Assembly: GCF_000025925.1 (NCBI RefSeq) | Contig: NC_014033.1 | Coordinates: 690,001 to 722,000, forward strand | Origin: Xylanibacter ruminicola 23 | GTDB taxonomy: Bacteria > Bacteroidota > Bacteroidia > Bacteroidales > Bacteroidaceae | Reading direction: 5' to 3' | DNA length: 32,000 bases | Shown here: positions 8,591-30,708 of the stretch, one piece after another | Position numbering within the stretch: the first letter of the stretch is position 1 | Layout of the letters: the number at the start of each line of letters is the position of its first letter | Translations under genes and position numbers: made by a program | The notes under the pieces: model-generated | Told to the model about the DNA's origin: nothing | Seen by the model: only the letters and a program-made list of their open reading frames with translations | The model's database searches: none

Positions 8591-10807
8591 TTATTTCTCA
8601 ATTATTTTCTGCATGGTGAGTATGTTCTCATCATTCTTGCGCTCGTAGCTGATATGGTCCATATAGTGACGCATCAGATGGATACCCAATCCGCCCTCAA
8701 CGCGCTGCTCGGCTTGCTGCTCAACATCTACTTCGGCTGCCTTGGTGGCATCAAAGGGCATACCTTTGTCGTGGAGTATAAATGTCAGCATCAAGTCGTT
8801 AGCCTCGGCCTCCAGTATAATATGACTTGGTTCGCGGTCGGGGTAAGCGTATTTCATGACGTTCACCACAGCCTCTTCAACAGCCAGGGTGGTATAGGTT
8901 GTTGCCGTCTCGTTCATCTCGAGGTCTTGGCAGATGCTGTTCACGAATGCTGTCAGCTCAACTACCTCTTCTACATCGTTGCCTAATGTGAGGCAGCGGT
9001 GATAGAGACTGCCGTAGGCAGGTTGGGGGATGTATCTGATAGCCATCAGTGAAATGTCGTCGTTTTGTGGCGTGTCGCCCACAAAGTTCTGTGCTGTTTC
9101 AAAATGCTGATGTGCATATTGACGCGCATCCAAATGCAAATCGGCCAGTCGGTTGGCTCTGTTACTGATGCGATCGCGACCAAACTGTTCGTGGTTGGCC
9201 GTCTCGGCCTCGGTATAACCGTCGGTATACATAAACAGTATCTCGTTGCGATCCATGAGTATGGTCTGATTGGTGTACTCCCACTCTGGGCGCAAACCCA
9301 ATGGTATGTTATTATCTACATAAATAAAGCGTGCCAGTGTGCCTACCAGCATGGGGGGCTCGTGACCGGCATTGCTGTAGTTCAGTTGGCCTGTCTTCAG
9401 GTCGAGTACGCCTAAGAAGAGAGTAACGAACATGTACGAGTCGTTGGTGTCGCATAAAGTCTTGTTCATGCGACTGATAATGTTACTGGGATCAGTATCC
9501 AGCATCGCCTCGCAACGGAACAGTGATATGGTTTCGGCCATCATCAATGCTGCAGGTACGCCCTTGCCGCTCACGTCGCCAATGCAGAAGAACAGCTTGT
9601 TGTCGTGCATCAGGTAGTCGTATAGGTCGCCGCCTACCTCCTTGGCCGTTACTATCTCACCGTAGATGTCAACATCTGGGCGCTCGGGGTAGGGAGGATA
9701 TTTCTTGGGAAGCATCGACTGCTGTATGTGACTGGCAATCTTTAACTCCTGCTCGATACCTGCCTTCTGGGCTGTGGTTTTTCTCAACTGGTCGATGTTG
9801 CGTATCAGGGCGCGACTCAGGAAGAAGATAACTATCAGACCAAAGAGCATAACAGCCAGAATGATGGCGCCAAGCACGTTGCCCTGATGGTTAATGATGG
9901 CCTCGGGTACAACAATCACTACTGTCCACTCGGCGTATTTCACAAACGAGTAGAACAATACTGAGCTCACACCGTCTTTGGTAATCTTACAGCTACCGCT
10001 CTCATGGTTTCTCATGTGGTTGGCCACTTCGTCATCTGCAGTGTCGGCTGTTTGGGATGCAACCTCCTGGAAAGTGGTTTTCAGAATAAGATCCTCGTTG
10101 GGATGAATGAGATAGGTACCATCGTTATCGAGTACAAAGCTGTACGATTTTTCCTTAAATCCCTTTTCAAAACGCTCATGGTTTTGGGCGTCAATACGCT
10201 TGTGGCGCAATCGGAGCCACTCCAGCGACACATCGGCACCCAGCATGGCCACCTTATTACCATTCTTATCGTGAATGTGTGTCATATAAGTGGTGGTAAG
10301 CTGTTGCGATGCAGCCTGATCGAAGTAAGGCGGTGTCCAATCGCCTTCATCGCGTTCATAAGCTGTTTGGTACCAGGGGTGCGTCAGGAAATCGGGATGA
10401 TCCTCGTTCATCTGCTTACCCTTGATAACGCCGTCCGAATCGCGCCAGGCATATATCTCGAAGTAGTGTCCACGCTGTGGGTAGAAGTCGGGTTCAAATA
10501 TCAGGCGACAGCTCGACATGTATTTGTTAAGCTTTACCATTTGCTCCAAATGTGCCTGCAACTTGTCGGGATTGTTGAGATCGTTCTCAATCACACTAGT
10601 GCTATTGATGGCTGCCACATACACGTCGGACAGCACACCACGTATTTTCTCGTTGGCGTGCAGCATAATACCCTCGTAACGCGATTCAACCTCGCGTGCG
10701 GTAGAGTTACGTGTAATGACAAATACAAAGCTCATAATGGTGGCCCACATGACTAACAGTACCACCATGATGATTAAGCTTAGTTTGTATGCAGATGCTT
10801 TCTTCAT
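8591..10807 (-). CDS. membrane sensor with fused PP2C/SpoIIE phosphatase and RsbW-type HATPase_c kinase domains
   Basis: 738 aa. An N-terminal TM helix is followed by a ~270-aa periplasmic Cache-like region (WYQTAYE...GDWTPPYFD...VAMLGADVSLEWL) and a second TM helix. Next comes a SpoIIE/PP2C domain (EVGGDLYDY, CIGDVSGKGVPAALMMA, YSNAGHEPP, FMYTDGYTEA, NDDISLMAIR). The C-terminus is RsbW-like (EEAVVNVMKYAY N-box, HDKGMPFD, GGLGIHLM). Confidence 0.85.
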   Translation of the reverse strand: MKKASAYKLSLIIMVVLLVMWATIMSFVFVITRNSTAREVESRYEGIMLHANEKIRGVLSDVYVAAINSTSVIENDLNNPDKLQAHLEQMVKLNKYMSSCRLIFEPDFYPQRGHYFEIYAWRDSDGVIKGKQMNEDHPDFLTHPWYQTAYERDEGDWTPPYFDQAASQQLTTTYMTHIHDKNGNKVAMLGADVSLEWLRLRHKRIDAQNHERFEKGFKEKSYSFVLDNDGTYLIHPNEDLILKTTFQEVASQTADTADDEVANHMRNHESGSCKITKDGVSSVLFYSFVKYAEWTVVIVVPEAIINHQGNVLGAIILAVMLFGLIVIFFLSRALIRNIDQLRKTTAQKAGIEQELKIASHIQQSMLPKKYPPYPERPDVDIYGEIVTAKEVGGDLYDYLMHDNKLFFCIGDVSGKGVPAALMMAETISLFRCEAMLDTDPSNIISRMNKTLCDTNDSYMFVTLFLGVLDLKTGQLNYSNAGHEPPMLVGTLARFIYVDNNIPLGLRPEWEYTNQTILMDRNEILFMYTDGYTEAETANHEQFGRDRISNRANRLADLHLDARQYAHQHFETAQNFVGDTPQNDDISLMAIRYIPQPAYGSLYHRCLTLGNDVEEVVELTAFVNSICQDLEMNETATTYTTLAVEEAVVNVMKYAYPDREPSHIILEAEANDLMLTFILHDKGMPFDATKAAEVDVEQQAEQRVEGGLGIHLMRHYMDHISYERKNDENILTMQKIIEK

Positions 10808-18650: not shown

Positions 18651-18690
18651 GCCGTCGTAAATGTAAATTTACGGCGGTTTTTTTTGTTTG
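18651..18690 (+). terminator. rho-independent terminator after pepO
   Basis: Imperfect hairpin GCCGTCGTAAAT / ATTTACGGCGG followed by a T9 tract (18678-18685 and onward). Confidence 0.7.
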
Positions 18691-18713
18691 ATTCATTTTT
18701 TTATTTAACTTTG
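18683..18713 (+). promoter_or_regulatory. promoter candidate for the kinase/AAA+/FHA/PP2C operon (TTTG-N19-TAACTTTG)
   Basis: TTTG at 18683-18686 and TAACTTTG at 18706-18713 with a 19-nt spacer. The -7 box ends 30 nt upstream of the ATG at 18744. Confidence 0.55.
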
Positions 18714-18743: not shown

Positions 18744-19667
18744 ATGAACGATATTACACAAAACCCAGATCGAATAAGCCGAGGTGCCGAGCCGCTTTAT
18801 CGTGAGCACTCTGCACAGCAACCTCAGTATCAGCAAGCCATGCAGGCCAATACGGCTAATGGTATCCAATGTCCTCATTGTGGCGCACTCAACGAAGCCG
18901 AAGCACTTTTCTGTGCCTCGTGCGGCGAGCCTATCGGTATGGCCACCTGTCCCTATTGTGGGGCAGCTGTCGATGCCGACGCCGACTTCTGCGAAAGTTA
19001 CCGTCACTATATCCGCAAGGACGTGTGCTCATTCTGTGGCGCCTATCTGCATGGCGCCGAGGCCTACTGCCCTGAGTGCGGTAATCCGGTGGGTGGTATC
19101 GATTGTCCTGTTTGTGGAACCCATAATGATTTCTCGTTCTGCAAACAGTGTGGTACAGCTCTTACCGAAGAGGCCCGTCTGATGAAGGAGAAGGTGATGG
19201 AGATGCCCGAGTACCAGCAGATGCAGAAACTGGCCGAAGAGTTGCAGAAGTTGGATTTGCAGATGCCTTATGTTACCGAGCAGGATAAGGAGCGCGACCG
19301 TAAGAGTCAGGAGCTGCGCCAGCGCGTACTCATGCTGTTGGCTCAGGATCGTGGTTTGGATCGTGTAGATGCCAACCTGGCCGACCATAAGGTGATGAGT
19401 AAAGACGAATACGACAAGAAGAAGCAGGAACGTATGGATATGCTGTCGCGACTGTTAGACCAGATGGCACAGCTGCCTCAGGAAAAGCCTGCTCAGGTGC
19501 GTAACTATGCTATGGCCTGCAAGCCTCAGGGTGTACGTCTGGCTTGGCAGTGCAACTTTAAGCACGCCCTCCACTCAAGTCCATGCGGATGTGCCAAGCC
19601 GCAGATGGGCGGAAAATGGATTATACTTGGTAAGGGAACAAGAAAAGAAATTAAAGACGATATCTAA
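18744..19667 (+). CDS. multi-zinc-ribbon / coiled-coil protein
   Basis: 307 aa. A Gln-rich N-terminus is followed by four consecutive CxxC(G)...CxxCG ribbons: CPHCG..CASCG; CPYCG..FCES (second half degenerate); CSFCG..CPECG; CPVCG..CKQCG. Then comes a ~130-aa highly charged helical segment and a C-terminal Cys cluster (CKPQ..WQC..SPCGC). Its stop overlaps the kinase start (TAATG). Confidence 0.8.
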   Translation: MNDITQNPDRISRGAEPLYREHSAQQPQYQQAMQANTANGIQCPHCGALNEAEALFCASCGEPIGMATCPYCGAAVDADADFCESYRHYIRKDVCSFCGAYLHGAEAYCPECGNPVGGIDCPVCGTHNDFSFCKQCGTALTEEARLMKEKVMEMPEYQQMQKLAEELQKLDLQMPYVTEQDKERDRKSQELRQRVLMLLAQDRGLDRVDANLADHKVMSKDEYDKKKQERMDMLSRLLDQMAQLPQEKPAQVRNYAMACKPQGVRLAWQCNFKHALHSSPCGCAKPQMGGKWIILGKGTRKEIKDDI

Positions 19668-22600
19668 TGAGTACGGATCGAACTCCACAAAATAAAGTAA
19701 ACGGAAACGAAGAGGTAAACGTAGATAAGACCGTACGTGCAACCAACTTTGATTTCCCACAGAATACTCCTTCAAAGGGTGAGGAGCCCGACAAACCGCT
19801 TGATGGCACCATCCGCATTGATATGCCGAAGATGGAAGCCCCCAAGCCAGCTGCTCCTAAACCACTTGACGGTACCGTGCGTGCACCTGGCCTTAATCAG
19901 CCTATTACACCACGACCTGCAGCGCCTCGTCCTGCAGCTCCACGTCCAGCAGCACCCAAAGCATTGGATGGAACTGTGCGTGCACCCGGCCTTAATCAGC
20001 CGATTACACCGCAATCTGCTGCGCCACGTCCAGCTGCTCCCAAGGCTTTGGATGGCACCGTTCGTGCCCCTGGTATCAACCAGCCCATTGCACCACAGCC
20101 CGTTACCCCACAGCCTGCAGCACCTAAACCTGCAGCACCATCAATGGGTAGTACCGTTCGTGGTGCACAGCCCCAGCCTCAAGCACAGGCTCAGGCTCAG
20201 GTTCGTCCCAACGTCAACATCTCGATTATCTCGTCGGCCAGTAATACCGACCGTGCCAAGAAACAGCGCCTGCAACGTAACCTGATTGATGAGAATATCT
20301 ACACGCTGAAAGGACAGGAGTATCGTCGTGTATCGGTACTGAGCGAGAATACAGGCGAGGCCGAGGTTTTTCTGGTTGAAAAAGACAACAAGGAATATGT
20401 ACTGAAAGTGTACTATCCCAATTTCGATGTGAACCGTAAGATATTGCAGACGGTTCTGAACTTCGACTTTGAGATGGTAGTAAAGGTGTACGACTTTGGT
20501 AAGACCTATGTGGATGGTAAGCACCGTTACTACGAGTTGATGGAGTACCTGCAGGGTGGCTCGATGGCCGAGTTCAATCTGGAAGGCGATATAAACAAGT
20601 TCCGTCGTATAGCTCTTCAGAGTGCTGCAGCCTTGGCTTACTGTCATCAGCTCAGAATTCTGCACAAGGATATCAAACCAGGCAACTTCTTCTTCCGTGA
20701 TAAGGACCATAACCAACTGGTTCTGGGCGACTTCGGTATTTCGAGTATGCTGGAGGAAGACGGTAAGTCGCATAAAACCACCCAGGCCCGTACCCCAATC
20801 TATGCGGCACCCGAAATGTATGCCGACGTAATTGATGGTGTGGTAGAGATTTCGCCAAAGGCCGACTACTACTCTTTGGGTATCAGCTTGATGACGCTGT
20901 GGTTAGGCGAGAGTCCGATGAGTACCAACGAGCGTGTGATGATGCGCCAGAAGAACGAGGGTCGCATACCACGCATGAACGAGTTGCCAGAGCGTATCAA
21001 GCTGCTGGTAATGGGTCTTACGGTGGTTAACCCCATCAACCGTTGGGGTTATGAGCAGGTAGAGCAGTGGTTCTTAGGCGAGAGCCCGAAGGTCGACCTG
21101 TCGTCACCATTCCTGAAGTACCAGAGTTTCGTTGTCGATCCAGAGCGTAACCTGGTGGCCGAGAACGTACAGGAGCTGGTGCCCATGCTGCTGGCCAACG
21201 AGCGCTTGGCTATCGGTTATCTGTATAACGGACGTATCACCCAGTGGTTGGACGCTTGTGGTAACAACAAACTGAGCACCATTGTTAAAGATATCATTTC
21301 CAAGAAATATCCTATCGATCAGCGTGCCGGTTTGATGGCATCGCTGTACGCTATGGACCCTGCCTATCCGTATAAGGATGTGCGTGGAACCAACTGCGAG
21401 GATATCCATGCGGTATGTATCTCGCTGCTGAGTAATCAGGACGAGTATGCCATATCGTTGGCTGCCCCGAACGATAATTTCTACCTTTATGTGGAAACCC
21501 ACACCAGCTGCGATGTTGATCGTTTGCGTTCTTACTTTAAGGAAGTAGACCATAACAATAAGGAGCAGGTACGTGTGGCTATCATGAAGATAGTGCTCGA
21601 GGTTGATCCTGAGATACCATTTATGGTAAAGCATCCATCGGCAGCAATTAACGATATTGTTAGCGCCTTTGGTCATGAAGATATAACCGAAGACGAGTGG
21701 CATAGTCTGACCGACGGACGCTTGCTGGCCTGGATGTACAGTCACGAGGACCAGATGGCGTGCGAGAGTCTGCGCATCATGACGCTGGATCAGCCTTACT
21801 CACGAAACTTGGCTTATAAGGTTCTTTATAACCTGAATCGCGAATCGGCCTATGATCTGGCCGGTGCCTTTACTCCTATACAAGTGGGCGAACTGCTCAA
21901 CGAGCGTTTGCATAAGGCGCAGAACCTTCCTGAGAAGGAGTTCGAGGAGGAGATGAAGGACTTTACTGAACTTGACGGTCGTTTTGCTTACTATGCCCAG
22001 CTGCACGGCTGGACCGAGATGTACAACGAGCATAAGCGCTGCTTCGACTTTAAGAGCGAGGAGAATACCGAACGTATGGGCGCTTATGATGTGAAGACGG
22101 CTGTTTACCGCTTCTGTCGTATCTTAGGCGTTACACCTACCTATATGATGGGCGACGGTATTGAGTACGCCGACGGCCGTAACCTGCAGGCAAAGAAGTT
22201 GCAGGTGTTCCGCAACGAAATCCGCAACGGCTCGATGGGGCAGTGGATGTCGGTGTTCTATCACGAAGACCCCAATGCCGACTTTACGGTAGAGTACTCG
22301 TACGAGCATGCCGTTGAGGACTGGTTGATGGCAATGGGAAAAATCGATCCTTCGCAGCGTTATTATAAGCGCTTTATCGATGCCCGCGACGAAACCCAGC
22401 GCCGTGTGGCCTTTGTAAAGGACAGTTGGAAGCGCGCCAAGACCAAGGAGAAGATCTGGCGTACAGCCTTCTACACCCTGAGCGGTATCTGGTTGGTATT
22501 CGTGCTGATATTCGGCGTTACCAATCCTGAGTATATCCTCACGCATACCTTTATCAGTATCGGTCTGCCTTTGGGTGGAATGACTGGTATGATTGTGGCC

Positions 22601-23119
22601 ACCCGCTCGTTCTTCAAGGGCTACGACTTTATGTTCTCGTTCCTGTGGGGACTGGTGGGCGCGTTTACGTGCTTTATACCTATTATTATATTAAAGTATA
22701 TTGGCGCATCGCACCCCATGCTGTTTAATATCGCCATTATCGTAATCACGCTTATCTACATGCTGGTTTGTCACCTCACAGATTTCCGTGGTAATGAGAA
22801 GGCCGACAGCCGACTGATATCCGAGGTGCTCGAAAACGATATGAAATCGAACTTGATAGAACCGCTGTACTACACCTTCAAGGCCCGTTCGTACAAGTTT
22901 AAGGGATCTAAGTTCGGTTTGCTTAACGATGTTACCGATCAGGTTCGCTCTATCACGGGCGAGAGTGTGCTTCACTACGTGCTGTGGAGCCTGCTGATGC
23001 TGGTATTCGTGGTATCGTTTGTGGTATTCAGCCCATCGATGCTGAACATTGCCAATCCTAACAGTCACATGAAGGAGGCCCCTAAAAGTATTATTAAGAA
23101 AATAGATAGAGACGCATAA
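19667..23119 (+). CDS. membrane-anchored Hanks-type Ser/Thr protein kinase with Pro-rich repeat N-terminus
   Basis: The kinase core spans roughly nt 20300-21110: beta3 Lys in YVLKVY, catalytic loop HKDIKPGN (H333), DFG (D355), and YAAPE. Before it is a ~200-aa disordered repeat region. After it is a ~450-aa region I cannot assign and five hydrophobic helices (nt 22454-23034). Confidence 0.88.
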   Translation: MSTDRTPQNKVNGNEEVNVDKTVRATNFDFPQNTPSKGEEPDKPLDGTIRIDMPKMEAPKPAAPKPLDGTVRAPGLNQPITPRPAAPRPAAPRPAAPKALDGTVRAPGLNQPITPQSAAPRPAAPKALDGTVRAPGINQPIAPQPVTPQPAAPKPAAPSMGSTVRGAQPQPQAQAQAQVRPNVNISIISSASNTDRAKKQRLQRNLIDENIYTLKGQEYRRVSVLSENTGEAEVFLVEKDNKEYVLKVYYPNFDVNRKILQTVLNFDFEMVVKVYDFGKTYVDGKHRYYELMEYLQGGSMAEFNLEGDINKFRRIALQSAAALAYCHQLRILHKDIKPGNFFFRDKDHNQLVLGDFGISSMLEEDGKSHKTTQARTPIYAAPEMYADVIDGVVEISPKADYYSLGISLMTLWLGESPMSTNERVMMRQKNEGRIPRMNELPERIKLLVMGLTVVNPINRWGYEQVEQWFLGESPKVDLSSPFLKYQSFVVDPERNLVAENVQELVPMLLANERLAIGYLYNGRITQWLDACGNNKLSTIVKDIISKKYPIDQRAGLMASLYAMDPAYPYKDVRGTNCEDIHAVCISLLSNQDEYAISLAAPNDNFYLYVETHTSCDVDRLRSYFKEVDHNNKEQVRVAIMKIVLEVDPEIPFMVKHPSAAINDIVSAFGHEDITEDEWHSLTDGRLLAWMYSHEDQMACESLRIMTLDQPYSRNLAYKVLYNLNRESAYDLAGAFTPIQVGELLNERLHKAQNLPEKEFEEEMKDFTELDGRFAYYAQLHGWTEMYNEHKRCFDFKSEENTERMGAYDVKTAVYRFCRILGVTPTYMMGDGIEYADGRNLQAKKLQVFRNEIRNGSMGQWMSVFYHEDPNADFTVEYSYEHAVEDWLMAMGKIDPSQRYYKRFIDARDETQRRVAFVKDSWKRAKTKEKIWRTAFYTLSGIWLVFVLIFGVTNPEYILTHTFISIGLPLGGMTGMIVATRSFFKGYDFMFSFLWGLVGAFTCFIPIIILKYIGASHPMLFNIAIIVITLIYMLVCHLTDFRGNEKADSRLISEVLENDMKSNLIEPLYYTFKARSYKFKGSKFGLLNDVTDQVRSITGESVLHYVLWSLLMLVFVVSFVVFSPSMLNIANPNSHMKEAPKSIIKKIDRDA
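19793..20140 (+). repeat. in-frame tandem protein repeat K[PA]LDGT[VI]R...Pro-rich (4 copies)
   Basis: Copies start at 19793 (KPLDGTIRIDMP..), 19859, 19958 and 20042 (K[PA]LDGTVRAPG[LI]NQPI[TA]P..PAAP). The units are 28-33 aa. They differ mostly at synonymous positions (e.g. cttgacggtacc / ttggatggaact / ttggatggcacc). Confidence 0.9.
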
Positions 23120-23125
23120 TATAAA

Positions 23126-26100
23126 ATGGTTTGTCAGAATTGTCATAAAGAAAACAGAAGCAAAGCAAAGTTCTGCAAGTGGTGCGGACAGCAGCTTGTT
23201 ACTACTGACTTGCTTGATAAGCTGGTTGGCCTCGATGAGGTGAAGAACCAGCTGAAAACCATTGTCGATACCTATACGTTTCTGCGCTCTCGCAAGGATA
23301 TCTCTAAAGCCCGTATCTCGCTCAATGCCATTGTGATTGGTGATACAGGTACGGGTAAGACGTCGCTGGCCGAGATTCTGCGCGATTACTTCTATCAGCA
23401 TAAGATCATCGAGAAACCCCAGCTGATGATGGTAGATGCCGTAGATTACCAGCGATTCGTCGACAAATGGGATGAAAATATCAAGAAAGCAAAGAATGGT
23501 ATATTGTTCTTCGACAATGTGCAGAAGCTTTTGCCCGATAAATACTCTAACCAGGTGAACCCGCTCGACAAGCTGTTTGTTGAGATGGACAAATGGGAGG
23601 ATAACCCCATTGTGATTATATCCGGACTCTCGAAGGGTTTGGAGGACTTCTTGGAGAGCAACCCAGCCGTAGCCAACCGTTTCAAGTATACCTTCCGTAT
23701 GACCACGCCAAACTTCCAGGAGCTTACCGAGATATGTAAGCTGAACCTGCAGTTGAAGTATGGCATACAGGATTTCTCGCCCGAAGCTGATAAACAGTTA
23801 TTGCGTTTCTTTAAATATCAGGTTAAGATTAAGGACGAGACCTTTGGTAACGGACACCTGGCCCATAAAACAGCCGAGAATATCTTTACCCAGTATATCA
23901 GTCGTGGCGCCAATGCCACAAGGGTAGAGTTGAGCGACATCACGGGTTATGTACCCGAGGAGCGCTCGGTTGAGGATATCCTGCGCGATCTGGACAGCTA
24001 CATTGGTATGGACGAGGTTAAGGCCGCCGTAAAAGAGATGGCCTACTCGGTACAGAACGCCATGCAGCGCGCCGAGCGTGGACTGGGCGAGCAGGAGAAA
24101 ATGTCGATGCACATTATTCTTACTGGTAACCCAGGTACAGGTAAAACCACCATTGCCCGTAAGTTGGGCGAAATCCTGGCAGCCATCGGCTATCTGGATA
24201 GCGGTCACGTAGTTGAGGTCGACCGTGCCAAGATGGTAAGTCAGTATCAGGGCGAAACACCTAAGGTGGTTGATGCCCTTTGCGATAAGGCCAAGGGCGG
24301 TATCCTGTTTGTGGATGAGGCCTACACCTTGGCTCCTGTGAGTGCGTCGGGCGATCGTGATGCCCAGGGCGCACAGGCTTTGGAGAAACTGATGAAACGT
24401 ATGGAGGACGATCGCGGACAGTTTATCGTGATTGCCGCTGGTTATCGCACGGAGATGGAGAACCTGTTCCGTGTGAACCCTGGTTTCCGCAGCCGTTTCA
24501 ATTATTTCCTCGATATCAAGGACTACTCGCCAGCCGAGCTGTTCGAGATTATGCAGGTATTTGCCAAGCAGAAAAAGTATATCTTCTCGCCGGATGCCCA
24601 GGTACTTACTCAGAAGATGATCAAGGAGATGTACGATTCGCGCGACAAGGACTTTGCCAACGGTCGTACCATGCGTACGCTCTTCGACCAGATTTGCAAG
24701 AAACAGGCACAGCGCCTGCAGGGGGCAAATATTTCTGCGATGAGCAACGAGGAGCTCATGACCATTGTACGCGACGATATCCCATACGATGCACCACAGA
24801 CCGTAAGCGTCGACGACTGTCTGAAGAAACTCGACGGTTTGGTTGGTCTCTCGGGTGTGAAGAAGGAGATTGCCAACCTGGCAGCCTTCCTGAACCTGCA
24901 GATTGCACGTGGCGAAACCAACACCTTCCAAGGCAAGCACTATGTGTTTACCGGTAACCCTGGTACGGGTAAAACTACCGTAGCCCGTATCATGGCCGAT
25001 ATCTTTAAGACGCTGGGCGTTGTGGCCCGCGGACAACTGGTTGAGGCCGACCGCTCTAAACTGGTGGCAGGCTTCTCGGGTCAGACAGCCATCAAGACCA
25101 ACCAGCTGGTTGATCAGGCTATGGGCGGTGTACTGTTTATCGACGAGGCTTACACGCTGAAGTCGAACGATGGCGACAGCTTTGGCGCTGAGGCTATCGA
25201 CACGCTGCTGAAACGTTTGGAAGATGATCGTGGTAAGTTTATCTGTATCGTGGCTGGTTATACCGACCAGATGCACGACTTTATCGACACCAACCCAGGC
25301 TTGAAGAGTCGCTTTACACAAACCATCCACTTCGACGACTATACGCCCGACGAGCTCACGGAGATCTTCCTGCATCTCGCATCCGGCAAGAACTTCACCG
25401 TCGACGAGGAGACCAAGGCGGCTATTCACCGTATGTTCGAGCAGCTCTATCTGCGCCGCGATAAGAACTTCGGTAATGCCCGTGAGGCACGCCGCATCTT
25501 CAACGAGGCTGTAGAGCGCCAGAGTCAGCGTCTGGTAAAGCAGATGACCAGTCCCGACTTCAAGGAGAGCGACATGTTTGCGCTCACCACCGCCGATCTT
25601 CCCCTGTCGCAGGGCGAGACCGCACGTCCGCTCGATGTGGTGCTCAACGAGCTCGAAGAGTTCATTGGTATGCGCTCAGTCAAGGATTCTATCCGTCGTC
25701 TGGCCGTACAGAGCATGTTCATGAAGCAGCGTGCCGCTATGGGTGCTGGCAGTGTTCAGCAGATGTCGATGAACTTTGTGCTTACGGGTAATCCGGGTAC
25801 AGGTAAGACATCTATTGCCCGCAAGATGGGTGAGATACTCCAGGCCATGGACATTCTGCCTACATCGCGTGTCATCGAGGCCAGTCGTGCTACGTTGGTT
25901 GGTAAGTACATGGGCGAAACACCTAAGATTGTGAACAGCATGTGCGATAAGGCCATGGGCGGTATCCTGTTCATCGACGAGGCTTATACCTTGAGCGATG
26001 GCGGCGACATGTACGGCAAGGAGGCTATCGACACGCTGATGAAACGTATGGAGGACGATCGTGGTAAGTTTGTGGTTATCGCTGCAGGCTATAAGGATAA

Positions 26101-26431
26101 GATGGAGGAGTTCATGATGATGAACGCCGGACTGGCCAGCCGATTCACCCACAAGTTGCACATCGACGACTACGATCCTGATGAGCTGCTGGCTATTTAC
26201 AAGCACATGGCCCAGAAGGAACAGTACCAGTTTACGCCTGAGGCTGAGCTTAAGGCACTCGACAAGATCTATAAGATGGTTCTTACCAAGACCGAGTCGT
26301 GGGGTAATGCCCGCGAGATGCGCAACCTGCTCGATTCTACTATCCAGCACCTGTCGGAGCGCGTATCAGCGCTGCCGGCCGATCAGGTTACAAAGGAAAC
26401 ATATCAGATTATACTACCAGAAGATATTTAA
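23126..26431 (+). CDS. zinc-ribbon protein with four tandem CbbX/SpoVK/EccA-class AAA+ ATPase modules
   Basis: N-terminal ribbon CQNC..(11)..CKWCG. Four modules each open with L[DE]x[LFY][VI]G[LM]xxVK. The Walker A motifs are GDTGTGKTS (aa 72), GNPGTGKTT (334), GNPGTGKTT (610) and GNPGTGKTS (888). The Walker B motifs are ILFFDNVQ (degenerate), ILFVDEAY, VLFIDEAY and ILFIDEAY. Each module also has an NPG[FL].SRF-type motif. Confidence 0.9.
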   Translation: MVCQNCHKENRSKAKFCKWCGQQLVTTDLLDKLVGLDEVKNQLKTIVDTYTFLRSRKDISKARISLNAIVIGDTGTGKTSLAEILRDYFYQHKIIEKPQLMMVDAVDYQRFVDKWDENIKKAKNGILFFDNVQKLLPDKYSNQVNPLDKLFVEMDKWEDNPIVIISGLSKGLEDFLESNPAVANRFKYTFRMTTPNFQELTEICKLNLQLKYGIQDFSPEADKQLLRFFKYQVKIKDETFGNGHLAHKTAENIFTQYISRGANATRVELSDITGYVPEERSVEDILRDLDSYIGMDEVKAAVKEMAYSVQNAMQRAERGLGEQEKMSMHIILTGNPGTGKTTIARKLGEILAAIGYLDSGHVVEVDRAKMVSQYQGETPKVVDALCDKAKGGILFVDEAYTLAPVSASGDRDAQGAQALEKLMKRMEDDRGQFIVIAAGYRTEMENLFRVNPGFRSRFNYFLDIKDYSPAELFEIMQVFAKQKKYIFSPDAQVLTQKMIKEMYDSRDKDFANGRTMRTLFDQICKKQAQRLQGANISAMSNEELMTIVRDDIPYDAPQTVSVDDCLKKLDGLVGLSGVKKEIANLAAFLNLQIARGETNTFQGKHYVFTGNPGTGKTTVARIMADIFKTLGVVARGQLVEADRSKLVAGFSGQTAIKTNQLVDQAMGGVLFIDEAYTLKSNDGDSFGAEAIDTLLKRLEDDRGKFICIVAGYTDQMHDFIDTNPGLKSRFTQTIHFDDYTPDELTEIFLHLASGKNFTVDEETKAAIHRMFEQLYLRRDKNFGNAREARRIFNEAVERQSQRLVKQMTSPDFKESDMFALTTADLPLSQGETARPLDVVLNELEEFIGMRSVKDSIRRLAVQSMFMKQRAAMGAGSVQQMSMNFVLTGNPGTGKTSIARKMGEILQAMDILPTSRVIEASRATLVGKYMGETPKIVNSMCDKAMGGILFIDEAYTLSDGGDMYGKEAIDTLMKRMEDDRGKFVVIAAGYKDKMEEFMMMNAGLASRFTHKLHIDDYDPDELLAIYKHMAQKEQYQFTPEAELKALDKIYKMVLTKTESWGNAREMRNLLDSTIQHLSERVSALPADQVTKETYQIILPEDI
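23213..26428 (+). repeat. four tandem internal AAA+ module duplications (module starts about 23213, 23990, 24830, 25651)
   Basis: The recurrent protein-level motif set has a period of about 260-280 aa. Modules 2-4 are clearly alike at the protein level, and module 1 is divergent. Confidence 0.85.
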
Positions 26432-26437
26432 CGAAAT

Positions 26438-27220
26438 ATGATTATTTGTCCAGCTTGTAAAGAAGAAATAGAAGACGATTCACATTACTGCGACCAATGT
26501 GGACAGCAGTTGCTGTTCTGTAAGCAGTGCGGTCATGTGGGGCTTGGACGTCGTTGTACACGTTGCGGCGGCATGATGGCTTTGCCTGCAGGTAGCATGG
26601 CAGCAGCCAATGCCGGAGCAAATCCCATGGGCGCTCCTATGGGCAACCCGATGGCTAATCCTATGGGCAACCCGATGGCTAATCCTATGGGTAACCCAAT
26701 GGGTAGTCCTGCTGGTAATCCTGGGGTAGGGGCTGCTGTGCGCCCTGGTGTAAACATCAGCGTTACACCCAGTGCCTCAGTATCGCGCGCCGCAAATGTA
26801 CCACCAGCACAACAACAGCAGCCTGTATCACCACGCACATCCAATGCGCAGAACATTGCAGCCAGCATATCGGTAGGTCCTGCTATCTCTATTGCTCAGG
26901 CAGGTGCCGGTCGTTCAAGCATGCCGATGATGACGTTGGTTAACGAAAGTCTCAATATACGTATCACAGCTATGAACGGTGCCATTATCGGTCGCCGTAA
27001 GGGTCCGTACGTTCAGTTCTTCGAGCAGAATTCGTACGTATCGGGTATTCATGCCCAGCTCAAGTACAAGTCAGGCGCAGGTTGGTTTGTTATCGATATG
27101 AACTCGTCAAACGGTACCAGAATTAATCAGGCTCCTATCCAGCCCGAGACCGAGAACCCGTTAAAGAATGGCGACGTGCTGTCGATTGCCAATGTCAACC
27201 TTCAAGTAGTAATTAGATAG
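26438..27220 (+). CDS. double zinc-ribbon / low-complexity / FHA domain protein
   Basis: N-terminus CPAC..CDQCG followed by CKQCG..CTRCGG. A ~130-aa Ala/Gly/Pro/Met/Asn low-complexity linker contains NPMG repeats. The C-terminal FHA signature is IIGRR....VSGIHAQL......FVIDMNSSNGTRIN......L.NGDVLSIANV. Confidence 0.88.
   Translation: MIICPACKEEIEDDSHYCDQCGQQLLFCKQCGHVGLGRRCTRCGGMMALPAGSMAAANAGANPMGAPMGNPMANPMGNPMANPMGNPMGSPAGNPGVGAAVRPGVNISVTPSASVSRAANVPPAQQQQPVSPRTSNAQNIAASISVGPAISIAQAGAGRSSMPMMTLVNESLNIRITAMNGAIIGRRKGPYVQFFEQNSYVSGIHAQLKYKSGAGWFVIDMNSSNGTRINQAPIQPETENPLKNGDVLSIANVNLQVVIR
26639..26710 (+). repeat. 24-nt tandem repeat (2 perfect copies + 1 diverged) encoding MGNPMANP
   Basis: atgggcaacccgatggctaatcct occurs at 26639-26662 and identically at 26663-26686. 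A third copy, atgggtaacccaatgggtagtcct, lies at 26687-26710. Confidence 0.9.
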
Positions 27221-27235
27221 TAATATTTAAAAACA

Positions 27236-27979
27236 ATGATAACAATACACATGACAGCAGCCAGCAAAGTAGGCTGCGTGCGTAGTCAGAACGAAGACAT
27301 GGTGCTGCTTGGCAGTCATTTCGTGAGGAATGATGCTTTTAGCACACGCGTAGACCTGACCAATAGCGACCGTTATATCATGGCTGTGGCCGATGGTATG
27401 GGTGGACATAATCGTGGTGATGTGGCCAGCAGTGATGCGCTGCATAACCTGGAGTTCTATTTTCACGATCTGCCCACAGGTCTTAGACCCGAATCCATCA
27501 AAGATAAGTTTGAGGATTGGTTAGACTCCATCAACAACATCATCGATTCAAAGGGTCGCTCCGACGAGCAGTATAAAGGTATGGGTACCACATTGGTAGG
27601 CTTGGCCTTCTACGAGGGCCAGTTCTATACGCTGAATTGTGGCGACAGTCGCTTGTATCGTTTCCGCGATGGCGATCTTACCCAGCTTACATCCGATCAC
27701 TCGCTCAGCAACATGCTCGGCTCTTCGCAGCATTCTAACGTTATCACTAACTGTATCGGTGGCGGTGCTACAAGCTCGTTTATCGATATTGTGAACATAA
27801 CCGATGATATCAAGGAGGGCGATGTTTACATGCTGTGCAGCGACGGACTCACTGATATGTTGCCCGATTCCATTATCTACACACTTCTTGCCGAAGGTTC
27901 TGACGCCAACACCCTCTGCGATGCCGCTGTGGCCGCTGGAGGCTTGGACAACGTGTCGTGTTGTGTGTTGCAATTCTAA
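27236..27979 (+). CDS. PP2C-family Ser/Thr protein phosphatase (Stp/PrpC-like)
   Basis: The PP2C motifs are present: VRSQNEDM, VADGMGGHNRGDVAS, GMGTTLVGL, NCGDSRLY, LCSDGLTD and GGLDNVSCCVL. Confidence 0.92.
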   Translation: MITIHMTAASKVGCVRSQNEDMVLLGSHFVRNDAFSTRVDLTNSDRYIMAVADGMGGHNRGDVASSDALHNLEFYFHDLPTGLRPESIKDKFEDWLDSINNIIDSKGRSDEQYKGMGTTLVGLAFYEGQFYTLNCGDSRLYRFRDGDLTQLTSDHSLSNMLGSSQHSNVITNCIGGGATSSFIDIVNITDDIKEGDVYMLCSDGLTDMLPDSIIYTLLAEGSDANTLCDAAVAAGGLDNVSCCVLQF

Positions 27980-28000: not shown

Positions 28001-28918
28001 ATGCCACTAAGATTACCAGACAGACTGCCCGCTATTGATATTCTGAAGAACGAGAATATCTTTGTGATGGATAACTCGCGGGCAACAACACAGGATATCC
28101 GTCCGCTGAAGATTGTGATTCTGAACCTGATGCCTCTGAAGATAACCACAGAGACCGATCTGGTTAGATTGCTTTCAAACACACCATTGCAGATGGAGAT
28201 TAACTTTATGAAGTTAAAGAGTCATACCCCTAAGAACACGCCGATAGAGCACATGATGATGTTCTATCGCGACTTTGAGTCGATGCGCAACGAGAAGTTT
28301 GATGGTATGATTATTACAGGTGCGCCTGTAGAGACGATGGACTTTGAAGATGTAACCTACTGGGACGAGATTACCGATATCTTTGCTTGGGCCAAAACCC
28401 ACGTCACCAGTACCTTATATATATGTTGGGCAGCTCAGGCTGGCCTTTATTACCATTATGGTGTGCCCAAGTACCCCTTGGAAAAGAAGATGTTCGGCAT
28501 CTTCCCACAAACACCCGTGGATACCAAACTGCCCATCTTCCGTGGGTTCGACGATGTGTTTATGATGCCTCACAGTCGTCATACCGAGATACATCGCGAG
28601 GATATTTTGGCCAACCCCGAGCTTACGTTGCTGGCCGAGTCACCCGAGAGTGGTGTCAGCATGGTGATGGCGCGTGGCGGTCGTGAGTTCTACATTACCG
28701 GTCACCTGGAGTATGCGCCAAACACACTCGACAATGAGTATAAGCGTGATCGTGGTATCCGCGACGATGTGGATATGCCAAAGAATTACTATCGCGATGA
28801 TAATCCTGACAACGCCCCAGTAGTAACCTGGCGTGCACATGCCAACCTGCTGTACAACAACTGGATTAACTACTACGTTTACCAGGAAACACCGTATAAT
28901 ATCGACGAAATTAAATAA
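28001..28918 (+). CDS. metA: homoserine O-acyltransferase MetA
   Basis: Collinear with E. coli MetA as I recall it: MPLRLPDRLPAIDILKNENIFVM, IRPLKIVILNLMP, FDGMIITGAP, HVTSTLYICWAAQAGLY, PHSRH, GHLEY, NWINYYVYQ. Confidence 0.93.
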   Translation: MPLRLPDRLPAIDILKNENIFVMDNSRATTQDIRPLKIVILNLMPLKITTETDLVRLLSNTPLQMEINFMKLKSHTPKNTPIEHMMMFYRDFESMRNEKFDGMIITGAPVETMDFEDVTYWDEITDIFAWAKTHVTSTLYICWAAQAGLYYHYGVPKYPLEKKMFGIFPQTPVDTKLPIFRGFDDVFMMPHSRHTEIHREDILANPELTLLAESPESGVSMVMARGGREFYITGHLEYAPNTLDNEYKRDRGIRDDVDMPKNYYRDDNPDNAPVVTWRAHANLLYNNWINYYVYQETPYNIDEIK

Positions 28919-28923
28919 GCTTA

Positions 28924-30708
28924 GTGACTGCATTAGAACTTTTAGCTCCAGCCAAGAATTTGGCTTGCGGCATAGCTGCCATCGATCATGGTGCCGATGC
29001 CGTTTATATCGGTGCGCCCAAGTTTGGCGCCCGTGCAGCCGTAGGCAACAGCATCGACGATATTCGCCAACTTTGTGATTATGCTCATCAGTTTGGTGCC
29101 AAAATCTATGTTACGCTCAACACCATCGTTTACGATCATGAGCTCGACGAGGCGCAGAAACTGATTGATCAGCTGGCCGGGATAGGCGTAGATGCCATTC
29201 TGGTGCAGGATATGGGCTTGCTGCAGTTTATGAACGGTAAGCCTTTCGAGATTCACGCCTCTACGCAGACCGATAACCGCTCAGCCGACAAGGTACGTTG
29301 GCTCAAGCAGGTAGGTTTTTCGCGTGCCGTTCTGGCGCGTGAGCTCTCGGCCGAGGAGATTGCCGAGATTCATCGCGAGGTGCCTGATATCGAACTCGAG
29401 GTGTTTGTGCATGGTGCCTTGTGCGTTAGCTATTCGGGCATCTGCTATGCCTCGCAGCATTGTTTCCAGCGTAGCGCCAACCGTGGTGAGTGCGCCCAGT
29501 TCTGTCGTATGCGTTTCTCGTTGGTCGATGCCGATGGCGAGGAGATAGAACACGAGCGTTACCTGCTCTCGCTCAAGGATATGAACCAGAGCGATAATCT
29601 GGATAAACTTATCGAGGCGGGTGCCGTATCGTTTAAGATCGAGGGCCGCCTCAAGGATGTTACTTACGTTAAGAACGTAACCGCTGCTTATAGCGAGCGC
29701 CTTAACGCCTATATCCGTAAGCATGCCGACCAGTATTGTCGTGCGTCAAAGGGCCGTTGCGAATACACGTTTACACCCAATCTCAATCGTACGTTTAACC
29801 GCGGCTACACCACTTACTTTATGAATGGTCGCCAGCCTAATATCGCCTCGTTCGATACACCAAAGGCGGTGGGCGAGTTTGTGGGTAAAGTTAAGGAGAT
29901 TCGTCACGATAGCTTTAACGTGGCCGGTACCGCCAGCTTTGCTAACGGCGACGGCTTGTGCTTCCTGAATCAGGATCGCCAGTTCGAAGGCTTCCGTGCC
30001 AACCGCGTGGTGGGTAATCGCATCTATCCTTTTAAGATGCCTGCTGGTTTGCGCCCGGGCATGTCGCTCTATCGTAACAACGATCAGGAGTTCGAGCGTA
30101 TTCTCTCTAAGCCCAGCGCTACCCGTAAGATTCCTGTAAGCATAGCCCTGCGTGCTGTGGCTGATGGCTTTGAGTTAAGTGCCGAAGGTGTAACGGTACA
30201 CTTTGCGGCCGAACATCAGATAGCCCAGAAGTCGCCTCGTGAGAATCTGGTTCGTCAGCTCTCAAAGCTGGGCGATACCATCTATGAGTGCCAGGAGGTT
30301 AACGTACCCGACGATTTTAATTATTTCATCCCCAATAGTCAGCTCACCGACATGCGCCGCCAACTGGTCGAGGCCCTTGTACAGCCCCAGCGCCAGGTAA
30401 AGCAGGCCAAGGTGGGTGCTAATCCAGGTGTAGACAAGCTCAGTTATCAGAATAACATCTCCAACCGCCAGTCGGCTGCCTTCTATGGTACCGATAAACT
30501 CTCGGCCTATGAGCTGAAAGGTGGCGACGGACCTATCATGCAGTGCCGTCATTGCATCCGTTATTCGTTGGGCTACTGCGTAAAGCGCGGCGGCAAACGC
30601 CCCACGTGGCACGAACCGCTTTCTCTCGTATTAGGCGATGGACGCCGATTCCGTCTTGAGTTTGATTGTCAACATTGTCAGATGAACGTCTATGCGTCGA
30701 CTCGTTAG
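28924..30708 (+). CDS. U32-family protein (peptidase U32 / RlhA-YdcP-like Fe-S enzyme)
   Basis: GTG start. The U32 N-terminus is ELLAPAKN...AIDHGADAVYIG..KFGAR. The conserved Cys cluster is CVSYSGICYASQHCFQRSANRGECAQFCR, and FKIEGR is present. The C-terminal extension ends in CRHC..C...CQHC. Confidence 0.88.
   Translation: MTALELLAPAKNLACGIAAIDHGADAVYIGAPKFGARAAVGNSIDDIRQLCDYAHQFGAKIYVTLNTIVYDHELDEAQKLIDQLAGIGVDAILVQDMGLLQFMNGKPFEIHASTQTDNRSADKVRWLKQVGFSRAVLARELSAEEIAEIHREVPDIELEVFVHGALCVSYSGICYASQHCFQRSANRGECAQFCRMRFSLVDADGEEIEHERYLLSLKDMNQSDNLDKLIEAGAVSFKIEGRLKDVTYVKNVTAAYSERLNAYIRKHADQYCRASKGRCEYTFTPNLNRTFNRGYTTYFMNGRQPNIASFDTPKAVGEFVGKVKEIRHDSFNVAGTASFANGDGLCFLNQDRQFEGFRANRVVGNRIYPFKMPAGLRPGMSLYRNNDQEFERILSKPSATRKIPVSIALRAVADGFELSAEGVTVHFAAEHQIAQKSPRENLVRQLSKLGDTIYECQEVNVPDDFNYFIPNSQLTDMRRQLVEALVQPQRQVKQAKVGANPGVDKLSYQNNISNRQSAAFYGTDKLSAYELKGGDGPIMQCRHCIRYSLGYCVKRGGKRPTWHEPLSLVLGDGRRFRLEFDCQHCQMNVYASTR

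Follow-up and report, generated by a model that had tools for sequence, protein, structure and literature searches.

In this study, a 32,000-nucleotide (nt) stretch of the Xylanibacter ruminicola 23 genome (assembly GCF_000025925.1, contig NC_014033.1, positions 690,001 to 722,000 of the forward strand; the whole stretch is called the window below) was analyzed around one gene, whose product carries a zinc ribbon followed by four AAA+ modules. The sequence places this AAA+ protein in a large, uncharacterized branch of the CbbX/SpoVK/EccA clade with several modules per chain, and predicts it to be the ATPase of a conserved five-gene phosphothreonine cassette. The cassette consists of a multi-ribbon coiled-coil protein, a Hanks-type kinase, the AAA+ protein with its variable number of modules, a ribbon-FHA protein, and a PP2C phosphatase; no earlier description of it was found in the literature. 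Taken jointly, the evidence modestly favors a reading in which the AAA+ protein is a phosphothreonine-regulated, dedicated protein remodeler with a catalytically dead head module, acting within this cassette and assembled as a hexamer of stacked rings.

Architecture of the AAA+ protein

The open reading frame at 23126..26431 is a genuine gene under strong conservation; its start lies 6 nt past the stop of the kinase gene upstream. Its product is 100% identical to two database entries, one named 'hypothetical protein PRMUPPPA20_11190 [Xylanibacter ruminicola]' and the other 'AAA+-type ATPase, SpoVK/Ycf46/Vps4 family', and at least 120 database matches share at least 99% identity with it. A scan of a genome collection with the protein returned 206 species-level relatives, all of them in Prevotellaceae. 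The best 80 of the 206, which with the query make up the 81 orthologs used below, are all full length, with 77-99% identity. A gene fusion or assembly artifact was ruled out by these 80 full-length orthologs of 1076-1115 amino acids (aa), and a recent tandem duplication was ruled out as the origin of the modules, which are merely 25-44% identical to one another within the chain.

Pfam recognizes four AAA stretches and three AAA_lid_6 stretches in the protein. The N-terminal ribbon exceeds the cut-offs of both DZR (28.5 vs 27.3 bits) and Zn_Ribbon_1 (27.2 vs 25), and its four Cys are invariant across the 81 orthologs. Each module begins with a related motif: L30DKLVGLDEVK (nt 23213), L289DSYIGMDEVK (nt 23990), L569DGLVGLSGVK (nt 24830), and L843EEFIGMRSVK (nt 25652). 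The Walker A motif reads GDTGTGKT (aa 72-79) in module 1 and GNPGTGKT in modules 2, 3, and 4 (aa 334, 610, and 888), and the Walker B motif reads ILFFDN (aa 126-131) in module 1, then ILFVDE, VLFIDE, and ILFIDE. The lid motif of modules 2-4 is ANGR, GNAR, and GNAR; R514 is at least 90% conserved, and its identity as sensor 2 is a candidate assignment. Judged by these motifs, modules 2-4 are catalytically complete motors with intact pore loops. Recomputation confirmed the zinc ribbon, the four-module layout, and the motifs listed in an initial annotation of this DNA. Most of its motif coordinates stood, except that the fourth opening motif had been put at nt 25651; the AAGY and NPG..SRF motifs that it gave for modules 2-4 were also found, apart from VAGY in module 3 and NAGLASRF in module 4.

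Clade assignment

Each of modules 2-4, scanned alone against NCBIfam, matched TIGR02881 (SpoVK; about 1e-72 to 1e-73), EccA (1e-63 to 1e-70), and CbbX (1e-58 to 1e-62), far more strongly than chance would allow. The same three models came top for module 1 (SpoVK 2e-22, EccA 4e-20, CbbX 2e-16), and the next-best models (PAN, RuvB, ClpX, FtsH) were weaker by 11 orders of magnitude for module 1 to more than 50 for modules 2-4. The top PDB sequence matches were EccA1 (9lur) and CbbX (3zuh/3syk), and the best Foldseek fold match of a modeled module was CbbX, with TMt 0.73-0.77 and 36-40% identity. The signatures of the clade agree with this placement. The GY of the sensor-1 region is found in modules 2-4 (G439-Y440, G711-Y712, G988-Y989), and the Asn upstream of the arginine finger in all four (N179, N451, N723, N1000); these residues and the Arg six residues past the Asn (R185, R457, R729, R1006) are invariant in the 81 orthologs. 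The position four residues past the Asn is Arg in module 2 only and is variable across the family. In the AlphaFold models, every module has a short helix followed by a long one ahead of beta-1 (H282-290 and H296-317, for instance), a candidate for the bihelical hairpin that marks the clade upstream of Walker A.

None of the three equivalog cut-offs is attained by any module. The CbbX (TIGR02880) cut-off is 459 bits, and single modules score 198-210 (60.5 for module 1); the whole protein clears it (644 bits) solely through the summing of four modules. For EccA (TIGR03922) they reach 212-235 bits against 467, with matches that span profile positions 273-549 only, and for SpoVK (TIGR02881) 241-247 bits against 423, in a host of the phylum Bacteroidota. 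Thus, the protein belongs to the SpoVK-EccA-like, CbbX-containing clade of PMC11513918, yet is neither CbbX, EccA, nor SpoVK. No Rubisco gene was seen among the large open reading frames read or scanned in the window, no ESX or type VII genes lie near the AAA+ gene, and no TPR family is among the Pfam matches listed for the protein, in which the 28-aa zinc ribbon precedes module 1.

The CbbX/SpoVK-class assignment of the initial annotation therefore holds by NCBIfam, PDB, and fold matches, and its statement that characterized members carry one module per chain is borne out by CbbX (PMC5385338), SpoVK (PMC11513918), and the AAA+ domain of EccA1 (9lur). These characterized members are chaperones, each devoted to one client at one site (PMC11513918; PMC5385338), and the variation discussed in the clade paper concerns N-terminal domains only (PMC11513918). 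CbbX of R. sphaeroides (3syl/3syk/3zuh) shares with the query the Walker A and B motifs, the GY, NPG..R.R, the pore-loop Tyr-x-Gly, and an N-terminal helix with an LDxxLIGL opening, but it has one module of about 35 kDa (PMC5385338) and no zinc ribbon, and its gene stands beside Rubisco genes, whereas the query has four modules, one of them dead. EccA1 (9lur) is the best solved sequence match (1.2e-51, query module 3 over EccA1 residues 16-272). EccA is a chaperone of the same clade devoted to one machine; it differs in its N-terminal TPR (and beta-helix) domain, single AAA+ module, and location in ESX loci (PMC11513918), the query having a zinc ribbon in place of the TPR and four modules. SpoVK of B. 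subtilis, which promotes MurG activity, is the top NCBIfam model for every query module and shares the clade signatures. It is a client-specific chaperone at one subcellular site, but it has a single module and a short beta-strand N-terminal domain and is confined to sporulating Bacillota (PMC11513918).

A conserved, degenerate first module

HMMER alignments to CbbX and EccA1 place D130-N131 of module 1 on the Walker B Asp-Glu (D137-E138 of CbbX, 3syk numbering), and hmmalign agrees; no Glu lies near the module 1 Walker B in the HMMER alignments. The loss of the catalytic Glu noted in the initial annotation thus stands after profile alignment, and it is invariant in the 81 orthologs. Module 1 also has G167-L168 in place of GY, again invariant in the 81 orthologs, and a 4-residue deletion at pore loop 1 that removes the Gly (DYQR vs QYQG). 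At the candidate sensor-2 position of the lid (ANGR or GNAR in modules 2-4) there is no Arg: the module has GNGH with a 4-residue insertion, and either His or Lys stands there, the local alignment being ambiguous. It retains K78/T79, D130, N179, and R185 (R194 of CbbX). None of the catalytic or degenerate signature residues varies among the 81 orthologs, over which the mean identity of module 1 is 80%, vs 83-86% for modules 2-4. The AlphaFold model shows module 1 with a complete AAA+ fold.

This pattern indicates a maintained module rather than a decaying relic. Because the Walker A is intact and the module is under purifying selection like that on the active modules, a nucleotide-binding structural or regulatory role, as the initial annotation had proposed, is a reasonable reading; most likely, module 1 binds ATP without hydrolyzing it and serves in assembly or regulation.

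Distribution of multi-module chains

When 1.84 billion cluster representatives were scanned in full with HMMER, 23,627 matched, 10,948 of them at 1e-30 or better. From these, the best 150 clusters at 50% identity were surveyed, and their modules were counted with a module hidden Markov model. The survey leans to long chains, as a four-module query accumulates score, so its counts are a lower bound on the number of multi-module proteins and not a fraction. All of the best 150 clusters proved to be multi-module: one chain has 2 modules, 79 have 3, 54 have 4, 13 have 5, 3 have 6, and one has 8. The score at rank 150 is still 549 bits, so the true number of multi-module clusters must be much larger. 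Successive Walker A Lys are spaced by a median of 276 aa (5-95% range 261-287, n=392), and modules are directly abutted throughout the family. The premise that four modules are exceptional therefore fails, and multi-module chains are common; nothing was found in the literature on multi-module CbbX/SpoVK/EccA-like proteins or on the cassette that would make them functionally characterized.

The same zinc ribbon heads 47 of the 151 sequences (46 clusters and the query), which carry 3 (19 sequences), 4 (19), 5 (7), 6 (1), or 8 (1) modules. Best-hit analysis showed that the head is orthologous throughout and that module number shifts via gain or loss of M2-M3 units (M1 to M4 denoting counterparts of modules 1 to 4), as in the layouts M1-M2-M3-M4 (P0122), M1-M3-M4 (P0125), and M1-M2-M3-M2-M3 (P0123). 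All 47 head modules keep the Walker A Lys, and 39 were scored as lacking the Asp-Glu. Asn takes the catalytic position in 30, Glu in 8, and His or Lys in 6; an intact Asp-Glu occurs in just 5. GL replaces GY in 31/47. The finger Arg is kept in 32/47 head modules vs 133/135 of the other modules. The longest chain, P0121 (locus L081, 8001-14702, 2233 aa), is laid out as M1-(M2-M3)x3 with a dead tail, so that six complete modules lie between a dead head and a dead tail; its gene stands in the same cassette.

Two further searches were made. A profile search with 25 aligned head modules returned only fragments of at most 530 aa and no taxonomic or architectural information. A tblastn search against plasmids gave 287 records. 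The best covered, from Streptomyces (in fusion with a beta-helix protein), Bacillus, and Ligilactobacillus, match over about 1.6 kb, or some two modules; single-module matches probably make up most of the remaining records, and nothing cassette-like appears in their listed annotations.

The phosphothreonine cassette

In 77-80 of 80 Prevotellaceae species the cassette occupies one fixed chromosomal position between housekeeping genes, and it is a fixed core-genome feature of this family. The AAA+ protein is conserved there at a level with metA (77-99% identity) and changes much more slowly than its cassette partners, which fall to 32-57% in the more divergent loci. Linkage is best judged from distant representatives. 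The cassette core is present in eight loci with GC contents of 35-73%. The same genes surround ribbon-headed proteins of different length, with 8 modules in L081, 5 in L082, 6 in L083, 3 in L084, and 4, in a different gene order, in L086. A counterpart of gene 1 occurs in all five of these loci. L081-L084, L086, and L088 each have an FHA gene adjacent or close by, with a PP2C gene after it; in L088 the FHA and then the PP2C gene lie past the ATPase gene, and in L087 a gene starting with DZR follows the ATPase gene. Cassette neighbors are missing around a four-module relative that has a Sel1 N-terminus and lacks the ribbon. In most cassettes read, one ribbon class heads the AAA+ and FHA proteins and fills the N-terminal part of the coiled-coil protein; from this co-occurrence, the shared ribbons may mediate co-assembly or, as the initial annotation had suggested for the AAA+ protein, docking of the cassette proteins. 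Two distant cassettes contain, at L084 11876-12220 and L086 4538-4894, an additional small hydrophobic protein of about 115 aa that matches no family and has no counterpart in the window.

In the window, the five genes are separated by -1, 6, 6, and 15 nt, gene 1 overlapping the kinase start by 1 nt. Gene 1 matches DZR in 3 stretches (5e-17) and Zn_Ribbon_1 in 4. Its C-terminus (19490-19667) carries W-x-C-N-x5-H-x2-P-x2-C-x2-P-x2-GG, which aligns in 6/6 cassette copies, matches no Pfam family, and may represent a small new metal-binding domain. In the kinase, the N-terminal tail is disordered and rich in Pro; the kinase domain spans aa 240-466 and is followed by some 450 conserved residues and by transmembrane-like segments at aa 930-1130. 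Such segments are C-terminal in every cassette kinase and absent from the other four cassette proteins. No Pfam family was found for kinase aa 468-1150. The roughly 450 residues between the kinase domain and the transmembrane cluster (aa ~470-930, 21068-22450) are conserved in the longer-aligning cassette kinases and may form an uncharacterized domain particular to this kinase family; the kinases of L081-L083 align over the post-kinase region, and the L084 and L086 kinases over shorter stretches. The linker of the FHA protein holds a 24-nt tandem repeat (26635-26710, 3.2 copies) that encodes NPMGNPMA repeats, and its length and sequence differ strongly among Prevotella species, with protein identity down to 32%. 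A 16-residue motif, A-x-VRP-x-VNIS-x3-SAS, is common to the kinase (aa 177-192, 20195-20242) and the FHA protein (aa 99-114, 26732-26779), with 11/16 identity and an E value of 8e-5 in pairwise BLASTP.

Conflict systems that combine kinases, phosphatases, and zinc ribbons have been described (PMC7159879), and the cassette could be an anti-phage or conflict system, with the kinase as sensor of infection and the AAA+ protein as effector or regulator. Its kinase domain matches the PADLOC models mad6 (1e-31) and PD-T4-6, its ATPase matches TRIP13, IetA, and mad8, and its module number and partner sequences are highly variable, as such a role would allow. However, the matches are domain-level only (kinase domain or single AAA module) and concern unrelated systems, none was found for the FHA protein, and membership in a PADLOC-DB v2 defense system was rejected. 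The systems of PMC7159879 are different kinase/PP2C/vWA systems. No nuclease, toxin, or other effector is linked at the loci read, and the fixed position in 77-80/80 species with metA-like conservation points to vertical core-genome inheritance rather than a defense island. A defense role is thus considered very improbable.

Assembly of the modules

Tandem AAA+ proteins usually form a separate ring from each module type, and the rings stack. The structural models make such an assembly, a hexamer with one ring per module type and four stacked tiers, the likeliest for the query, with somewhat better than even chances. In the full-length AlphaFold model (23-sequence alignment, pLDDT 84.8, pTM 0.52) all four modules are folded. 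The model superposes on single chains of Drg1, Cdc48, Rix7, and p97 over 570-625 columns, with TMt 0.41-0.57 for the better-fitting chains and a root-mean-square deviation (rmsd) of 7-9.5 A. A model of M3-M4 (pLDDT 88, pTM 0.69) gave a TMq of 0.42 with one module matched (CbbX) and 0.56-0.61 with both matched (Rix7 6mat/7swl, Cdc48 8u8i, ClpC 9a66); as a monomer model, it superposes on type II chains over about 575 columns with rmsd 7.5-9 A. Stacking is favored because orthologous cassettes carry 3, 4, 5, 6, or 8 modules, a series that no single tiling rule fits. The even spacing of the Walker A Lys and the gain or loss of M2-M3 units behind an orthologous head count in its favor as well.

In such a stack, the non-hydrolyzing head tier would act as a stable assembly ring. 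Precedents are known for a tier that binds ATP, hydrolyzes it poorly, and stabilizes the hexamer, NSF D2 and p97 D1 among them. Weak retention of the head finger Arg (32/47 vs 133/135) is what would be expected if each head faced another non-catalytic head site in a homotypic ring. The D1 tier of Pex1/6 is likewise described as ATP-binding, poorly hydrolyzing, and hexamer-stabilizing (PMC4490564). Type II AAA+ proteins (Cdc48/p97, Rix7/NVL, Drg1/AFG2, ClpA/ClpC, NSF, Pex1/Pex6) resemble the query in having several AAA+ modules per chain; they differ in having two tiers and modules of other clades, whereas four tiers are predicted here (three to eight in relatives), all from modules of the CbbX/SpoVK/EccA clade.

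The initial annotation had reasoned that four modules per chain cannot tile one hexameric ring and that three chains may therefore form two hexamers. This argument overlooks stacked rings built per module, and neither the 3, 4, 5, 6, or 8 modules of the cassettes nor the D1-D2-like models agree with it. Tiling would set the modules of one chain side by side, so that three chains give two hexameric rings or one 12-module ring with module 1 at fixed non-catalytic positions. Pseudo-hexamers made of a single chain or a few chains do exist, as in dynein and midasin, and inter-module linkers are short. Three-module chains, which would tile a hexamer as dimers, are the commonest (79 of the best 150), P0121 has exactly six active modules between two dead ones, and P0127 also has six active. 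These observations are offset by the range of module numbers in orthologous cassettes and by the frequency of four-module (54) and five-module (13) chains among the best 150. AlphaFold places consecutive modules in a D1-D2-like manner, and a dynein-like single-chain ring geometry was rejected for its model (rmsd 26-28 A, TM 0.06-0.19). The poor retention of the head Arg would also be unexpected if it completed the site of an active neighbor. Tiling is accordingly rated as rather improbable.

It is also unlikely that the protein forms no closed homomeric ring at all, acting as a monomer, as an open spiral or filament that serves as a variable-length array, or with rings made by some modules only. 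Free variation in module number (3-8) through duplication of the M2-M3 unit would suit such an array, as would the full-length pTM of just 0.52. CbbX, according to the work attributed to Mueller-Cajar et al. 2011, reportedly needs ATP and ribulose bisphosphate (RuBP) to form its hexamer, so that oligomerization in the clade can be conditional. On the other hand, modules 2-4 show no variation in the trans-acting Arg, the pore-loop aromatic-x-Gly, or the Walker motifs, features selected in ring-forming, threading motors. The closest solved relative is also hexameric (CbbX electron-microscopy model 3zuh; PMC5385338), and SpoVK has been modeled as a homohexamer (PMC11513918). Stacked rings remain the preferred assembly.

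A proposed phosphothreonine switch

The N-terminal tail of the kinase has six copies of a [DG][KGS]T[VI]R motif: DKTVRA, DGTIRI, DGTVRA (three times), and GSTVRG. Three copies lie inside an 84-nt tandem repeat (19932-20094). Copies of the DKTVR-, ATVR-, PTVRI-, and ATTRV-type occur at the same place in the kinase tails of L081, L082, and L086, and the FHA proteins of L081, L082, L084, and L086 end exactly in ...DKTVRL, ...DKTVRI, ...GTVRI, and ...GTIRV. Many FHA domains prefer pT-x-x-[ILV] (pT, phosphothreonine), Thr with Leu, Ile, or Val at +3 being the classical FHA ligand, and GarA and OdhI bind their own phosphorylated tails. Because the T[VI]R motif fits this preference and has the GarA/OdhI precedent, we infer that it is probably both a kinase phospho-acceptor and an FHA-ligand site. 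By analogy, the T[VI]R tails suggest a GarA/OdhI-like self-binding of the FHA proteins.

The following switch can thus be proposed. The kinase would phosphorylate the T[VI]R Thr on its own tail and, in relatives, also that on the C-terminal tail of the FHA protein. The FHA adaptor would read these marks and nucleate a membrane-proximal complex, at which the AAA+ protein would be recruited or switched on to remodel or thread a dedicated client; the PP2C phosphatase would then reset the switch. The pore-loop aromatic-x-Gly of modules 2-4 suggests substrate threading or pulling. Candidate clients are the tail of the kinase itself, the coiled-coil zinc-ribbon protein, or, by analogy with SpoVK and MurG, an unlinked envelope enzyme.

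EccC and EssC, the FtsK-like ATPases of type VII systems, also have three to four P-loop domains per chain, some degenerate, and EssC has N-terminal FHA domains. They belong to the FtsK/SpoIIIE superfamily, not to AAA+, are membrane-embedded, and form part of the secretion machine; several ATPase domains per chain are thus common to them and the query, while the superfamily differs. The closest precedent in function, and one that the logic of the proposed switch resembles, is the type VI threonine phosphorylation pathway (PpkA, the PP2C PppA, Fha, ClpV), in which genes for a membrane Hanks kinase, a PP2C phosphatase, and an FHA protein likewise stand beside an AAA+ gene. In Pseudomonas aeruginosa, the AAA+ ATPase ClpV1 is not recruited to foci without Fha1 and PpkA, which PppA counteracts (PMC3953482, PMC5995506), although ClpV recruitment is independent of Fha1 phosphorylation itself (PMC3953482). 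The pathway differs from the cassette in that ClpV is of another clade and that the zinc ribbons and the coiled-coil protein have no type VI counterpart. No type VI genes were found among the neighbors in the window or in L081-L088, and neither type VII genes nor those of another machine are linked to the cassette.

Identity, motif states, degree of conservation, linkage to the cassette, and changing module number are observed, and phosphorylation sites, recruitment, client, and oligomeric state are predicted. Several points weigh against the combined reading of a phosphothreonine-regulated remodeler with stacked rings. The stacking is drawn indirectly from monomer models built on shallow alignments (23-26 sequences), with a full-length pTM of 0.52 and rmsd values of 7.5-9 A, and AlphaFold may simply echo the commonest tandem arrangement of its training data. 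For the relative of 2233 aa, stacking would imply an eight-tier barrel, which would be without precedent. Both the FHA ligand and the phosphorylation sites are deduced from a short motif; the FHA protein of the window itself has no C-terminal T[VI]R tail, and some Prevotella kinases have no T[VI]R within 300 aa, the start calling being crude. No client gene is linked in any of eight contexts. Synteny in the 80 Prevotella loci, though complete, is uninformative by itself, because the housekeeping neighbors are equally syntenic.

Significance

The clade has so far been known from single-module chaperones with one client each: Rubisco, MurG, or ESX substrates. The present analysis adds a large unstudied branch of 3-8-module chains and, within it, a sub-branch with a fixed design of zinc ribbon and dead head, tied to a kinase/FHA/PP2C switch from rumen Prevotella to an organism of 73% GC. 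To our knowledge, no characterized unfoldase has more than two AAA+ tiers. If the stacked tiers are real, the architectures of AAA+ unfoldases extend past two tiers, and the family offers a natural series of 3, 4, 5, 6, and 8 for the role of extra tiers. A bolder picture can be offered only tentatively and is doubtful as a whole: each module would form one ring of a hexameric barrel, with four tiers here and three to eight in relatives; the ATP-bound dead head would be the platform; barrel length would evolve as M2-M3 units are duplicated or lost; and loading would be gated by a self-contained phosphothreonine switch made of the membrane kinase with its multisite T[VI]R tail, an FHA protein able to bind its own T[VI]R tail, and the PP2C phosphatase. 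If true, such multi-tier barrels would be a new, widespread bacterial remodeling machine coupled to signaling.

The T[VI]R motif is a concrete, testable phospho-motif, and the cassette gives a candidate function for Hanks-kinase signaling in Bacteroidota. We believe this signaling to be little studied, as far as we know; a literature search found nothing on it in this phylum. Considering that the AAA+ gene is conserved at a housekeeping level in an abundant rumen and gut lineage, its client is probably important for cell physiology.

Features and neighbors in the window

The coordinates of the gene, its modules, and the cassette are collected in Table 1. The hairpin past the upstream M13 peptidase gene likely separates the cassette from the genes upstream. 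The putative promoter element TAACTTTG matches TAnnTTTG, which we take to be the Bacteroidetes -7 promoter consensus.

Table 1. Positions of the AAA+ gene, its domains, and the other cassette features in the window
Feature	Position	Strand	Description
Hairpin and T-run, likely terminator	18651..18686	+	gccgtcgtaaa...tttacggcgg then T8; past upstream M13 peptidase gene
TAACTTTG, putative promoter element	18706..18713	+	fits TAnnTTTG; 30 nt upstream of first cassette gene
Cassette gene 1	18744..19667	+	307 aa; about four zinc ribbons, coiled coil, C-terminal Cys/His motif
Cassette gene 2	19667..23119	+	1150-aa Hanks-type Ser/Thr kinase; Pkinase 1.9e-29
Kinase N-terminal tail, six [DG][KGS]T[VI]R copies	19724..20167	+	kinase aa 20-167; candidate phospho-acceptor / FHA-ligand sites
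AAA+ gene (cassette gene 3)	23126..26431	+	ATG start; 1101 aa; zinc ribbon and four SpoVK/EccA/CbbX-class AAA+ modules
N-terminal C4 zinc ribbon	23132..23200	+	aa 3-25; C3-x2-C6 ... C17-x2-C20; Pfam above cut-off
Module 1 (head)	23210..23971	+	aa 29-282; degenerate; predicted ATP binder
Module 2	23972..24811	+	aa 283-562; K340, D397-E398, G439-Y440, N451, R455, R457; pore loop Y374-Q-G376
Module 3	24812..25636	+	aa 563-837; K616, D673-E674, G711-Y712, N723, R729; pore loop F-S-G
Module 4	25637..26428	+	aa 838-1101; K894, D951-E952, G988-Y989, N1000, R1006; pore loop Y-M-G
Cassette gene 4	26438..27220	+	260 aa; N-terminal double zinc ribbon, low-complexity NPMG-repeat linker, C-terminal FHA; FHA 3.2e-14, DZR 1.1e-6
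Cassette gene 5	27236..27979	+	247-aa PP2C-family Ser/Thr phosphatase; PP2C_2 8.3e-14, PP2C 2.4e-8

The remaining genes of the window are housekeeping genes. A homoserine O-succinyltransferase gene (28001-28918) begins 21 nt past the PP2C gene, and a U32 peptidase gene (28924-30708) follows 5 nt further; both may be co-transcribed with the cassette, and they are not part of it in other lineages. On the minus strand, 8591-10807 encodes a 738-aa membrane sensor that combines dCache/PDC, SpoIIE-type PP2C, and HATPase_c_2 (anti-sigma-factor kinase-like) domains in one chain. It is the second Ser/Thr phospho-signaling protein of the window and is unrelated to the cassette.

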